The position numbers and the translations under genes are program-made. 64,000 nt of DNA, taken from the NCBI GenBank assembly GCA_964016885.1, contig OZ024740.1, positions 260,276,001 to 260,340,000 on the forward strand. Direction: 5' to 3'. This document shows, in pieces, positions 7,270-30,096 of this stretch (the stretch's first letter is position 1; each line of letters begins with the position of its first letter). The notes under the pieces are model-generated. The model saw only the letters and a list, made by a program, of their open reading frames with translations, ran no database searches and was not told the DNA's origin. This DNA is from Eledone cirrhosa. Lineage: Eukaryota.

Positions 7270-7470
7270 AATGAAGGAGTTGTGGTAAGGAATCAAATGG
7301 GCCATAACGCACCAGAGTACTCAATACTTGGGGTAGTAGAGTGGGTAATAGGAAAAAGTATGACCCCGACGGCAGAGCTCAAGCCGTTTCGATGACTATT
7401 TCTGGACTCAGTCCAGAAATAGCCATCGAAACGGCTTGAGCTCTGCCGTCGGTGTCATACTTTTTCCTAT
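7270..7470 (-). mobile_element. Short repeat (probable Penelope-like 3' end) with a 123-bp fold-back hairpin, embedded in (TA)n
   Basis: Palindrome 7348-7470 centred on 7409, with 61-bp arms and 2 mismatches. Homologous copies at 29873-30096 and 13980-14082. Confidence 0.7.
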
Positions 7471-8419
7471 ATATATATATATATATATATATATATATAT
7501 ATATATATACGCACACACACACACACACACACACACATATATATATATATATATATATATATATATATATGTGTGTGTGTGTAATGTGCAATGACCTATA
7601 TTTGCAAACAACCATGCGCACACATGTAAATTATCAATGGCACATTAAGTTCATAAATAGTATGTACTTTTAACATAGCTTGCAAAAGAAATGTCGACAT
7701 ACAAAACAATACATACAAGAAATACACTGATAAATACACACATACACATACGCAAGCACATACACACAAACACACATAAACCATGCTAGCATAAAAAAAA
7801 TATATGCTATATATATATATCATCATCATCATCCCATTTAATATCCATCTTCCATGCTTGCATGGGTTAAATTAGTTGTCCCATTGTGAAAGAAGTCAGA
7901 GAACCTTGTCTTGCTCATACAGAACTGATCCTGGCTAGGTTTCTACAGCTGGATGCCCTTCCTAATTTACAGTGTAGATAGGGCGTTTTTATTGTGGCAC
8001 AACTACGACCATTTTACAGTGTGGGCTGGGTGCATTTGATTATGGCATAAAGACAATTACCTTACAGTGTGGATTGGTTTTTTTTGTCATGGCACCAAAA
8101 CGACCACTTTACAGTGTGGACTGGAGGCTGAGGTTGGGTGTTAGGGTGTGTATGGAAGTGAAAGGGGGTAAGATAAGGAAAAAGTGGTGTATACCAGATG
8201 TATGCTTTAACCATGCAAATGGGAAGGCTGGTCTTTTGCATTAATGCATAACACCATATATATATATATATCATCATCATCATCATCACCGTTTAACGTC
8301 CATTTTCCATGCTAGCATGGGTTAGACACACACACAATTTCAGTCATTAGATTGCAACCATGCTGGGTCACTGGTTTGATTTAGTTGATTATATCGGCAT
8401 CAAAACTTATTTTTCAAGT

Positions 8420-8950
8420 CTGGTATATATTTTATCCATCTCACTTTTCTGTTGGGATCAGAATCCTGGCTACTTTCCTGCTAATCAAAACTTTAGTTTT
8501 TCCCATATTTACTCTAAGCCCTTTTGGTTCTAAATTCTGTTTCCAAAGCCAAAATTTCTTCTCCAGCTCTTTCACTTATTTGGCTATTAGAAGCAGGTTG
8601 TTGGCATACAGTTTCCATGGGCAACCTGTCTTAAACTCCTTTGTTATGGCTTGGAGAACTATGATAAACAGAAGTGGGCTGAAGACTGAACCCTGATGAA
8701 CACCCACCTGCCCTTTGAATTCCTCACTACATTCATTACCTACTTTCACCTTACTGACAGTACCTCTGCACATGGCTTGCACTACTCTTACAAACCATTC
8801 TTCTATGCCTGATTTCCTCAAGGACCACCAGATATCAGATTGAGGTACTCTGTCACACACCTTCTCTAGAACAACAAAAGCTAAATATAGAGCCTTATTC
8901 TTAGCTAGGAACTTCTCTTGAAGGTGCCACACTAGGAAGAGGGCATCAGC
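8420..8950 (-). mobile_element. RTE LINE RT fragment
   Basis: LQEKFLAKNKALYLAFVVLEKVCDRV, GVHQGSVFSPLLF and LYANNL motifs. Confidence 0.9.
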
Positions 8951-9255
8951 TTTTTTGCATACTATATATTGTTGTCTAGTTGGTTACTTGGTATTGATCT
9001 TTACTACCCCCTGTTTCTTCTAACCCATGCATGCATGGAAAAATAAACATAATATAGTGATGATGATTATAACCTAGCCACTAGTAAAGATACTAAAAAC
9101 ATTTGAATTAACAAAACCTGTTTTTTGACATTTTCTACTAAATCATTACAGGATGTTAAGATTTAATTAACAGTCTTGCATATTGCAACATGAAAAATTC
9201 AAGTTTTTAATCTATCACTGAAATTTCCACAAGGATCTGTCCACTAGCAAAGATA

Positions 9256-9615
9256 TAGTGGAACCTCTGTTCATGAACTTAATTTGTTCCTGGAGGCCGT
9301 TTGTCACCCAAAATGTTTGTAATCCAAAACTATTTTTCCCATACAAAACATTGAGGGAGAAATACAGTGAAAGAGAGACTGTGTGTGAAAGACAGATATA
9401 TATCAACATAGTAACTAACTACACAGCAAGTGACACTATTCTGACACTATTCTCGTAAGAACTAGTACCAGTAATATTCTGCCGATACTCCCAGCTTGTT
9501 GCCAACCTTTGTTCATTACTCAAGACACCGTTCGTCACCCAAGACATTCTATGTTCGGAAAAACTGTTCGTGAATTCATTTGTTCATGATGAGAGGCGTT
9601 TGGGAACTGAGGTTT
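9256..9615 (+). mobile_element. pogo/Tigger-like MITE remnant
   Basis: Left end tagtggaacctctgttc resembles a CAGTGGAACCTCGGTT-type TIR. The right end gaactgaggtt is its truncated complement. Confidence 0.55.
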
Positions 9616-11047
9616 GGTAATTGAGGTATTATAAACATTTGAATTAAAATTTTAGATATTTTCTGCTCAATCATTACGAGATTATTTAGAGTAAAGCCAT
9701 GTCTAACTCGTAAGAACTAGTACCAGTAATATATTACAAAGTTCTCCCTACCTCATCCATTGTGACTGTAGTAGATAGTTACAAGGGCCCCCTATTAATT
9801 AAATCACATGACCAACTCTAATGAGCAAAAAAATCAATAAATGTCTGTGACATGTGATCTTTATATTCCATCTATAAAGTTTTTCTCTTGGGCTTAAATA
9901 TTTTCCCTCAACGAACCAATTAATAAAGAACTCGTTTACAATCAATATCTCATGTATAAATGAGCCCTCTCTCTCTTTCTTTATCTCTTTCACTCTCTCT
10001 CTCACTCTTTTTCACTCTGTCTCTCTCACAGTTCCTCTCTTTCACTATCTCTCTCCCTCTCTCACTCTTTCCCTTCCTCTCACACTCCCTTTCTCTCACA
10101 TTATCTATATATCTGTGTTTCAATTGTTTGACCAATTGAACAGTTTAATGTGAAATTTATGTCCAAGTGGCTGAGCATTCTACATACATGAGTACGTTTA
10201 ACATAGTCACGAGGGTGATTCAATGTGACACAGCCTGTGACAAGGTTGGCCCTAATAATTACTGGTTCAGCTCATTTTATTTTCAGCTGACTGGACTACA
10301 GCAACATGAAATAAAGTGTCTTGCTGAAGGATAAAATGTGTGGCAGAAAATCAACGCCCTTACAATTATCAGCCAAACACCTTAATCACTAAGCCATGTA
10401 CCTTAATTGTCTCCCTCTATGAACACACATATACATCGACACTACACATGCACAGACACACCAACACACACTGCACATACACACCGACATGTACACAAAA
10501 GCATTTATTTGCATTGAATTTCTGTTTTCTTGAGTTTCATGCCACTGCAGTCACCAATTATCAGGCTAGAACTTAAAAGGAAATCACAGTGGCATAAAAC
10601 ACGAATTGTGAAGAAAAGAAATTATGTTTAGATATATAATTCTTTCTATTATTGGCACAAGGCCAGCAATTACTCAGTACATTACTGGTACTTTATTTTA
10701 TCGACCCCGTAAGGATGAAAGGCAAAGTTAACCTTTAGATATATAATAAACAAAAGGAAAAGAGTTGATTGTAGAGACCCCGAGCTGGCATTTTCCTTTG
10801 CAAGATTGGAAATACAGCAGCCTGCCTAATGAAGGAGCCCTAACAGGTGAACTGGCTATTACAGCAGGTGTCACTGGCCATTCTATGTGGCACTGCCTCC
10901 ACCATTTTATCCACAGGATATAGCTGAGAGATACTGTCCAGGCTAGGGTTTAGAGTCTATCACTCTCTCTACCTCTTCTTTCATTTTATTTCTTTTTCTT
11001 TTATTCTTCATTTCCTTATTGCTTTGTAGTTATTTACTGTTTGTGTT

Positions 11048-27910: not shown

Positions 27911-27914
27911 TCAC

Positions 27915-28490
27915 ATCATCAGTCTGGAACCCCTATCTTGCTCAGAACATTGAGCTCCTGGAAACTGTTCAGAGACGCGCAACCAAGCGCATACCCTCCA
28001 TCAGACACCTACCATACTCTGAACGCCTTGCTTCCCTGGGCATGGATTCATTGAAGCTCTGATGTCTGGCAATGGACTTGGTAAACACCCACAAAGTTAT
28101 TAACCATCTCGCCAACAACAACCCTGAACACCTTTTTGATCTCCATGTGTCTAACACATGTGGACATGGCTACAAAATCAGAAAACAGCACAGCTCCCAT
28201 GACTTTCGGAAACATTTTTTCACGCTCAGAGTTGCTGAAGCATGGAACAAACTGCCTGCGTCAGTTGTTAGCTGCTGAGACACTGCATCCTTTAAAACCC
28301 TCATGCTTCCTGAAATTCGCCAAAACTACACCTGATGTATCCCTTCCATACACATGCACACATGTGTATATCATGCACTGTTCATTTTCCTGACCTTTGT
28401 ACATTACCCTATGTACTATACATACACTTTTTGATGAGTTGTAGAGCACCTGAGCACTGTACATAATATTTCATTATTATTATTATTATT
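27915..28490 (+). mobile_element. CR1-clade LINE 3' end (C-terminus, 3' UTR, (ATT)n tail)
   Basis: VWNPYLAQNIELLETVQRRATK, GHGYKI and RKHFFTLRVAEAWNKLP. A 3' UTR remnant of the same family lies at 13145-13260. Confidence 0.9.
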
Positions 28491-28499
28491 ATTTAAAAC

Positions 28500-29665
28500 C
28501 ATATTTACTATATGGTGCTCTTATAGAAATTTTTACTTCTATTATAATATAAATTACAATTAATTATTAGGTTAAACATTAGATAAAACAATATATCTTT
28601 AAATAATATACATTCCTTAACTTACTTAATAAAAGTTTGTTTACAATTCACATACTTGAGACATTCAAATTTTACATAAATGTTTAAATTTATATAACTA
28701 ACCTTATACAATAATAGATTATACATAATATTATACATCTTCACTTAAAAAAAAATATAATTATTTTCACATTCTTAAGGTATATATAAAAAATGCAGAT
28801 ATATCATCGCTTGATATATCTTATGCTCTTTCATGATTCTATGTCTATATATACTTAAATAAAATCTATATTCACGCATAATCATTATATACTAAATAAT
28901 TTTTTTTTTCAAATAACAATATACAATAATGTCTTATACTACAATACATTATATTTATAACTGTAGTCATCATAATATTAACATATATGCGAAAAATATA
29001 TCCACTCGTATATCTAAATACAGGGTATTTTTCACATATTATATTGTTGTAATTGCTTTAATAAATTAATAGTTCTCAATTTAATACATTACTTTATAAT
29101 TCTCATCTAAATATTATAAATACTTCCATATTCTTAAAATATATTATAAAATTAACTAAATAAATAAATATAATTATTTCATTCTTTCTGTACCCATGTA
29201 AATATGTTTGGGTGTATATATGCATATTTCTATAAATAATCGTAAATTAACTTTAAAATATTTTTTTCAAATTTAATAGCAATCCCTTAAAAAAAAAACA
29301 ATTTAGATTAATATTTAAAATCTATCTAGCGTCTAAACTTAACAGTCCTTTTCAGTTTTAACGTTATCCTCATTAGCATATTTCTCATGAGTTTTGAAAG
29401 ATTATATTCACTATCTTCAATAAACTTATAACATGAAGTTCACACGAAGATATGTTACTATCTTTCCACCAATTGTTGTATTTTATCTGACGAAAGCATA
29501 CTAAAATATTAGTACCCTTGAAATACCTATAATAAAATAAATATGGTTTTATAAAGATATTTTCCATTTATTAATATTATTGATATCGATGATACACCGG
29601 ATAAATACCATTGAGTGCTTCTAATCTGTTGTAAATTAACCTTGTTGAATAAACCAAATAACTCA
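28500..29665 (-). mobile_element. Extremely AT-rich degenerate LINE-like remnant (paralogue of 1-310)
   Basis: Homology to 1-310 seen directly. Family assignment is tentative. Confidence 0.35.
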
Positions 29666-29872
29666 TTGTTTATATGTGTGTGTGTGTGTGTGTGTGTGTG
29701 TGTGAGTGTGATCATGTCAATATGCCTGTTTACTTTTGTATCTGTGTTTATGATCCATAAGAAAAAAAAGATGGATCAATAAAATAAATTGAAAGAGATT
29801 GATATGATCAAAGTGATGCCACAGCATGGCTGATACCAGCTAAAAATGAAAAGTATATATATATATATATAT

Positions 29873-30096
29873 AACGAAGGAAGTGTGGTAATGAACCAGG
29901 TGGACCATAACGCACCAGAGTAACAATACTTTGGGTAGTAGAGTGGGTAATAGGAAAATGTTCAAGTCCCTGATGGCAGAGCTCAAGCCGTTTCGACGGC
30001 TATTTCTGGACTAAAAAAAAATTTTTTTTTTTTAGTCCAGAAATAGCCGTCAAAACGGCTTGAGCTCTGCCATCAGGGACTTGAACATTTTCCTAT
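29873..30096 (-). mobile_element. Second copy of the hairpin-bearing element (see 7270-7470)
   Basis: Palindrome 29950-30096 with an An/Tn centre and the same arm limits as the copy at 7348-7470. Confidence 0.75.

Follow-up and report, generated by a model that had tools for sequence, protein, structure and literature searches.

The 64,000-nt stretch of Eledone cirrhosa DNA analysed here (the window; contig OZ024740.1, positions 260,276,001 to 260,340,000) carries three copies of a Penelope-like element (PLE) that we assign to the Hydra clade, two of them arranged as head-to-head hairpins, together with one head-to-head insertion of a second, Neptune-like PLE family (Table 1). All three copies of the first family are inserted in (TA)n. 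Genome-wide, 999 insertions of this family have both arms reaching the same base around a centre of 1-3 nt, so the hairpins are not chance arrangements; they are an abundant, real feature of a known element class. Signed positions refer to the element sense strand, with +1 being the A of TTAGTCCAG, and L-numbers denote loci fetched from the genome.

Table 1. Coordinates of the PLE features in the window
Feature	Position	Strand	Remark
Copy 1, 78-nt PLE tail (+62 to +139)	7270..7347	-	outer end at (TA)n
Copy 1, tailed arm core (+1 to +61)	7348..7408	-	predicted hammerhead 3' half
Copy 1 centre, single C, untemplated	7409..7409	.	T at -1 in long copies
Copy 1, tailless arm (+1 to +61)	7410..7470	+	CCTAT end at (TA)n
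Copy 3, solo tailed arm, about +38 to tail end, without partner arm	13980..14081	+	
Second PLE family, head-to-head insertion	20194..20641	.	centre 20415-20417 at own +1 hotspot
Second PLE family, minimal hammerhead cores	20458 (+), 20374 (-)		intact in both arms
Copy 2, tailed arm	29873..30012	-	tail 29873-29949, core 29950-30012
Copy 2 centre, A9 then T12	30013..30033	.	both arms to at least -3
Copy 2, tailless arm	30034..30096	+	outer ends as in copy 1

Hairpin anatomy and element identity

An original prediction, made from the letters of the window, had described 7270-7470 and 29873-30096 as diverged copies of one family, each with a long and a short inverted arm. The two copies do belong to one family (77% identity overall), both short arms stop at CCTAT beside (TA)n as had been seen, and the third copy indeed has no partner arm. 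That both hairpins turn at the same nucleotide was right for copy 1, which turns at +1, and wrong for copy 2, which turns at least 3 nt further on. The turn had also been placed in the loop of stem II of a hammerhead ribozyme; it lies instead in the 3' strand of the apical part of that stem, where -18 to -12 pairs with -3 to +4 and the loop is -11 to -4. The arms of copy 1 agree at 59/61 bases. The core of the tailed arm holds the stem II 3' strand, GAAA, stem III, the GUC site and the stem I 3' strand, and in full-length copies the tail runs on into the 5' untranslated region (UTR) and the open reading frame (ORF). In copy 1 the outer end of the tail is probably the downstream start site of reverse transcriptase (RT), +61, where the tailless arm ends, is probably an internal start site, and the central C is presumably a copy of the cap G. 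Copy 2 has lengthened A runs on both complementary DNAs (cDNAs), and similar centres were found among the genome copies.

An exact search of the 3.0-Gb genome with a 27-nt motif of the tail gave 12,952 matches, and a reversed control gave 0. Long copies continue into an RT and endonuclease frame; the RT motifs YRDDG and NFLDVT and the endonuclease region NVIYQ...AYIA are present in natural copies, and 835 homologues were found at E<=0.001. A full unit (L251) measures 3,113 nt between direct repeats and has an ATG at about +230. A Pfam search with the frames of the first family and four homologues gave nothing significant, and the PLE assignment therefore rests on motifs and structure. A partial-tandem pseudo-long terminal repeat (pseudo-LTR, pLTR), an inverted 5' copy and a one-sided tail are present (L251, L382-L401), and the combination of inverted pLTRs and a one-sided tail is usual in PLEs (PMC3846280, PMC8557442). 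The motifs include DKT in place of DKG (HSDKTGN in L154, L155 and L251), a CxCX5C linker (CNCPDRSMC or CNCPDRSTC), RLRWR in L155 as a conservative variant of the RWK motif, and CxxC and CxH around the E and N residues in L251 (CSLCSEE, ACKH), with a GIY-YIG-like core that by eye has no cysteine pair. Together with the predicted canonical hammerhead and the (TA)n target, the DKT, CxCX5C, CxxC and CxH motifs agree with the Hydra clade as defined in PMC8557442. A 61-nt-only inverted arm in long insertions was considered and rejected, as both arms are long. Two further elements were encountered among the fetched loci, namely a Hydra-like family beside a second-family copy (L418:4105-4991) and yet another PLE-type RT and endonuclease (L411).

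The identification of a hammerhead-bearing retroelement proved largely right. In long copies the ribozyme is complete and spans -50 to +46, running through stem I, a UUGANAA core, a long stem II with an apical hairpin, GAAA, stem III (5 bp, with a palindromic loop) and the GUC cleavage site at +39 to +41. With core, three stems and NUH site in order, it is a predicted type I hammerhead. The core reads TTGA-N-AA, with variable N, in 27/28 distinct long arms passing the motif filter. All three stems occur in the minimum-energy fold of only some copies; a C-G for U-A exchange in the apical stem II of L044 indicates that this stem is real. The 5' half missing from the hairpins is thus present in long copies, although in place of the expected CUGANGA it reads ACCCC followed by UUGANAA, a U3-A8 core variant that is already published (PMC4209133). 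As regards the 3' half, the stem followed by GAAA was correctly recognised, while the cleavage site is the GUC after stem III and not TT-GAGC. An Rfam scan of the window found no hammerhead; the window holds only halves of the first-family ribozyme. The cleavage site was also considered as an arm end and discarded, given that only 2/138 arm ends (2 tailed and 0 tailless in the 69 close pairs described below) lie at +41 to +43. In the arm core of L038, L069, L344 and L256, a recurrent deletion between two CGACGGC repeats removes stem III from one arm.

Arm ends, pairing and the base at +1

Of the first 100 listed tail matches 92 were fetched, one duplicate was dropped and 91 were parsed, and 69 had a close inverted partner; the junction parser makes a non-overlapping split and may gain a base or a few by chance. 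Arms end within -1 to +8 in 42/69 tailed and 44/69 tailless cases, and within -19 to -9 in 4 tailed and 2 tailless ones. The modal tailless end is +1 (11/69), and six tailed arms end at +53 to +80, near the tailless start. Palindrome centres are concentrated, as had been predicted, with their mode at +1 rather than at the stem II loop. A splice acceptor at +2/+3 was rejected by eye, because tailless arms end most often at +1 itself and no shared upstream donor is joined at that point. A loop-spanning class, with both arms to -3 and 5-11 nt between them, comprises 642 insertions; among the 50 listed, the exact loop of the main subfamily is retained in only 3. Among the 11,340 arms reaching +1 genome-wide, the next base is C or G in 4,301, although A would be expected there from the template, and A or T in 7,039. 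About half of the first 100 A/T-followed arms continue past -9, and a +1/+7 junction without C is the commonest single junction (about 31 of the first 100 C/G arms).

In these insertions a tailed arm is combined with a tailless one. By hand tally the first 100 of 10,119 arms comprise 50 tailed, 49 tailless and 1 unclear; 15/16 close pairs among them are tailed with tailless and none is two-tailed (P=2.6e-4), and the partner is tailed in 0/69 of the tail-anchored close pairs. The earlier observation that arms share variants was upheld, since 47/49 classifiable close pairs (of 70) are of the same subfamily, with 0.26 expected at random. The own partner is the best match in 9/12 long pairs, and both arms of an insertion probably come from the same source. 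A private 9-mer is common to both arms in 8/70 close pairs and found in a single arm only in 33, counts that do not separate gene conversion from same-source origin, either of which may explain the shared variants. The two arms of L153 lie 4 kb apart and carry the same private short tandem expansion near +46, which points to one source molecule. In three independent insertions (L040, L092 and L378) the tailed arm lacks the stretch between about +62 and about +12, which may reflect a jump from the tailless start site.

If the second arm were made by snap-back of the tailed cDNA, the tailless arm could never extend beyond the tailed arm. Counting differences of at least 3 nt, the tailless arm is the longer in 34 and the tailed arm in 18 of the 69 close pairs, and in 17 the two differ by no more than 2 nt. 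Among 18 long head-to-head insertions read by hand, a non-random set picked for visible pairing, the tailless arm is more than 100 nt longer in 11, the tailed arm is longer in 4, and 3 are level. The tailless excess reaches about 2 kb (484 vs 2,267 nt in L156; 231 vs 1,688 in L166), and the arms of long pairs are truncated independently. The junctions do not show the marks of a snap-back product, a second arm contained within the first and a turn over a loop of at least 3 nt. The tailless arm being longer in 34/69 close and 11/18 long pairs contradicts, as the main route, the proposal that the cDNA primes itself on stem II.

Centre bases were tallied by hand on the first 50 of the 999 perfect centres. 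Single-base centres are C or G in 28 and A or T in 3 cases; CG occurs in 2/6 and GC in 0 of the 2-nt centres, and 9/13 of the 3-nt centres are C-W-G and none G-N-C (P=8e-9 vs 1/16). C therefore stands on both cDNAs in 11 multi-base centres (9 C-W-G, 2 CG) and G on both in none; read from the tail side, single centres are C in 11 and G in 15. Position -1 is T in 58/59 classifiable long arms (of 60), one of these preceding a changed +1, and 17/28 inspected single-base centres belong to a subfamily with template T at -1. C-W-G centres recur at A(-4) and A(-5), with TCATTT around A-4 in one subfamily, and near-identical young copies have different centres (C, G, CG, CTG and CAG). At +1 the sequence is TTAGTC or TCAGTC, and TATTTAT or TATTTAAA starts at -29 to -34, a context that we take to be initiator (Inr)-like and TATA-like with the expected spacing. 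An untemplated 5'-end G has been associated with cap copying in L1 (PMC9341517), and PLE transcription is known to start within the pLTR (PMC2377424). We infer that +1 is a capped transcription start. The window palindromes 38963-39061 and 20194-20641 were considered as extra cap evidence and rejected, their centre bases being templated.

The second family has 7,551 arm matches; 35 of the first 100 end within 3 nt of CCA(+1)GAT and 65 read on through the listed stretch. TATAAAA begins at -30. The entire minimal hammerhead is downstream of +1, at +39 to +76, from which it follows that the hotspot tracks the promoter-like sequence and not the ribozyme. Tailed and tailless arms are combined in 16/17 close pairs. 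An uninterrupted 770-aa RT and GIY-YIG frame lies inside a head-to-head insertion (L402:1217-3526); its motifs (EADKGS, the linker CGRSNCGTC of the form CX2-5CxxC, and the CCHH pattern) and its RVT_1 and GIY-YIG domains, above the Pfam cut-off, assign the second family to the Neptune clade.

Proposed mechanism and alternatives

The best-supported mechanism, and one that we consider likely, is twin target priming, run-off at a capped start and end joining. The two cut (TA)n target strands would each prime reverse transcription on the element RNA, one cDNA starting at +139 and the other at +61. Both would run off the likely capped RNA 5' end at +1, and their 3' ends would then be joined by an end-to-end template jump or by short annealing; the two cDNAs would derive from one RNA or one source element. 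The position of this start inside stem II in the first family would mean only that the copy at the RNA 5' end is without the catalytic 5' half. In vitro, both strands are cut and extended by a PLE protein, which begins synthesis at two internal sites bounding the tail (PMC11167929). Both points fit the proposed mechanism, and the present junctions add that one start of each kind is used per insertion. A second form of template would account for long arms that continue beyond +1; it may be a ribozyme-made circle, a read-through tandem RNA or a transfer in which the short cDNA moves to the 3' repeat; a circular template has been proposed for PLEs (PMC4209133).

Several observations weigh against this mechanism. 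The start site at +1 is read from DNA only, and the TATA-like box of the first family is the pairing partner within stem II, so its conservation is not independent. As many as 11/28 single-base centres belong to a subfamily with C at -1 in 1 of 2 long arms, and these 11 centres could therefore be templated. For the second family, the C at -1 is templated and C-N-G occurs in 0/50 centres, which makes its cap evidence weaker and not clean. The +1/+7 junction without C is not explained by a cap, and about half of the first 100 A/T-followed arms read through +1. Among 30 arms with a 5' UTR (30 of the 40 listed best matches to L184), 19 continue past +1 of the upstream repeat and 7 stop at +57 to +111; the remainder, all of a class that jumps into the ORF, stop at about +42 (1) or at +4 to +17 (3). 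Intact full-length arms pass this upstream +1 in 19/19 cases. Such frequent passage calls for the second template form, as a unit-length capped template predicts more +1 stops. L395 is two-tailed, and the window copy 20194-20641 has two tails and 12 nt of inverted flank beyond (TA)n; the latter may have arisen by true fold-back, or by insertion into a hairpin that was already there. Either arm could also have been shortened by later deletions at palindrome centres.

At four loci (L224, L228, L230 and L243) a cDNA reached +1/+2 and resumed inside the ORF, at about +409, +409, +581 and +975, the last at an A run; the same four stop at +4 to +42 on the second pass, and L230 and L243 may share one source. 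ORF fragments of L228 (about unit position 975) and L249 (about 695) end in A runs. Such ends suggest prematurely polyadenylated RNAs that served as jump acceptors or were primed directly. The data also suggest two template populations, capped RNAs without the 3' repeat leading to run-off and complete RNAs leading to passage, which may proceed by transfer, circularisation or read-through, alternatives that the data do not separate. A wider model is tentative, and we hold it with less than even confidence: PLEs would perform a target-primed version of LTR-like strong-stop synthesis, in which a dimer initiates a pair of cDNAs close to the 5' end of a single capped mRNA. Once at the cap, each cDNA would have to move to a circle or to the RNA's 3' repeat, the end of which may be set by the hammerhead. 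Transfers that succeed would yield the pLTR and partial tandems, failed ones the thousands of short hairpins, and centres would map the promoter to the base in any genome.

The alternatives differ in how they account for the second arm and the edge. That one cDNA runs off the RNA 5' end and primes or jumps onto itself, with resection and cutting at a later point taking off one tail and trimming either arm, is unlikely. It accounts for the shared variants (47/49) and the sharp edge, and two-tailed palindromes do exist (20194-20641 with its 12 nt of inverted flank, and L395), but up to about 2 kb of the tailless arm has no counterpart in the tailed arm (L156, L166) and an extra C is found on both arms (C-W-G and CG centres). 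Moreover, loops of 0-1 nt are too tight for a priming hairpin, and a precise tail-removal step is not known from the cited PLE literature as consulted. Slightly less probable again is a structural stall at +1, caused by stem II or the U run, with RT adding untemplated bases and no promoter involved. The reality of the apical stem (the L044 exchange), the A-run extensions, which include copy 2, and the DNA-based placement of the start site would suit a stall; however, all 19 intact full-length arms continue through this sequence in the upstream repeat, C is favoured as the added base, and the second-family hotspot lies outside its hammerhead, 30 nt below TATAAAA.

The central idea of the original prediction, that second-strand synthesis is primed by the cDNA itself after folding on the stem II hairpin, giving the ribozyme fold a second role as primer, is now very improbable. 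Loop-spanning insertions exist (642), 3 of 50 listed keep the natural loop and L042 fits, yet this class is a minority beside the 999 perfect +1 centres and many other near-+1 junctions, and the mode is at +1 and not at the loop. Several of the 50 listed are in fact C-W-G centres at -4/-5, and L264, the one exact-loop locus inspected, has the loop on the tailless arm. A second strand primed in this way would not halt at +61, and the second family has an equal hotspot with no ribozyme stem there. We give marginally less credence still to self-priming on an antisense transcript, the published reading of head-to-head palindromes in rotifer PLEs (PMC3846280): it predicts shared variants, but fails to predict the two fixed outer ends, the independent arm lengths or the extra G at the sense 5' end of both arms. 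An assembly or read fold-back artefact, or later rearrangement of solo copies, can be practically dismissed, as the arms differ (59/61 in copy 1), the flanks are not mirrored, the outer ends are fixed and unequal, and near-identical young copies have different centres.

Other window features and comparison with known systems

The window contains other repeats. A perfect 48-bp hairpin at 38963-39061 lies in a low-copy repeat with 37 motif hits; the fold-back is a one-off, since every other copy listed reads on normally, and one copy lies between the arms of L158. A diverged hairpin (85%) of another repeat family occupies 27037-27251 and 55363-55605. Inverted repeats of about 365 nt, 98-99% alike and 2.3 kb apart, lie at 30987-31350 and 33609-33973 with AAC-rich flanks, and no PLE protein match was found there in the window. 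The only hit of the Rfam window scan, just over threshold, is tRNA-like (34163-34226); its sequence recurs beside many fetched loci, as a tRNA-derived short interspersed element would.

The element class is already known and the mechanistic inference is new. A link between PLE palindrome centres and a capped start was not found in titles and abstract openings of the open literature, with subscription journals and supplements outside the scope. The origin of PLE inverted repeats, tails and pseudo-LTRs is left open in the consulted sections of PMC2377424, PMC8557442 and PMC11167929. The thousands of dead-end junctions in this genome now set bounds on that mechanism: each arm has a single start, run-off occurs at a fixed base, a cap-like base is added, and now and then there is a jump from the run-off base to an internal position or an A run. 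The junctions speak against the published proposal of self-priming and yield precise predictions that the existing in vitro system can address. If the proposed mechanism is true, palindrome centres give PLE transcription starts from genome sequence alone, and the unexplained origin of PLE terminal repeats becomes testable.

The first family resembles the described Hydra clade (PMC8557442) in its C-terminal endonuclease region, DKT, CxCX5C, canonical hammerhead and (TA)n target, and in the inverted 5'-truncated copy with a one-sided tail; RWR replaces RWK here. It differs in its unit of 3,113 nt, as against generally under 3 kb, in its tail of 78 nt, where 30-40 is described for PLEs, and in its very high copy number, and a +1 hotspot is not described in the sections consulted. 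The PAc/Poseidon system studied in vitro (PMC11167929) likewise has two internal RT starts bounding the tail, cutting and extension of both strands and a predicted dimer, and ribozyme cleavage is not needed there, in keeping with the 2/138 arm ends at +41 to +43 here. In the sections consulted of that work there is no strand difference in start site and inverted pairs are unexplained, whereas here the two start sites are used one each per insertion; its ORF starts inside the ribozyme, unlike the ATG at about +230 here. Penelope of Adineta vaga (PMC3846280) shows head-to-head inverted pLTRs, a palindromic junction, an optional tail, and TATA- and Inr-like motifs noted in a pLTR. Self-priming was proposed there, whereas our data favour two sense-templated cDNAs. 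The PLE hammerheads of PMC4209133 share the type I fold in the pLTR, the U3-A8 core variant and the palindromic loop III; opposite-strand pairs were noted and circles proposed for more-than-unit copies. In contrast, stem II of the ribozyme predicted here is about 45 nt and contains the run-off site. Penelope of D. virilis (PMC2377424) also starts transcription inside the pLTR, and is TATA-less. That study saw no obvious mechanism to regenerate the pLTR (PMC2377424, as consulted). The present junctions address that point.

Two more distant systems offer a comparison. In L1 twin priming, two primers on one RNA copy non-overlapping parts of it, whereas here both arms copy the same stretch. The strong-stop DNA of LTR elements is a short 5' cDNA that must transfer, as would the short cDNA in the transfer variant proposed here, although neither a tRNA primer nor an integrase is involved. 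With L1, finally, these elements would share the use of two primers on one RNA and the copying of the cap (cap G, PMC9341517).

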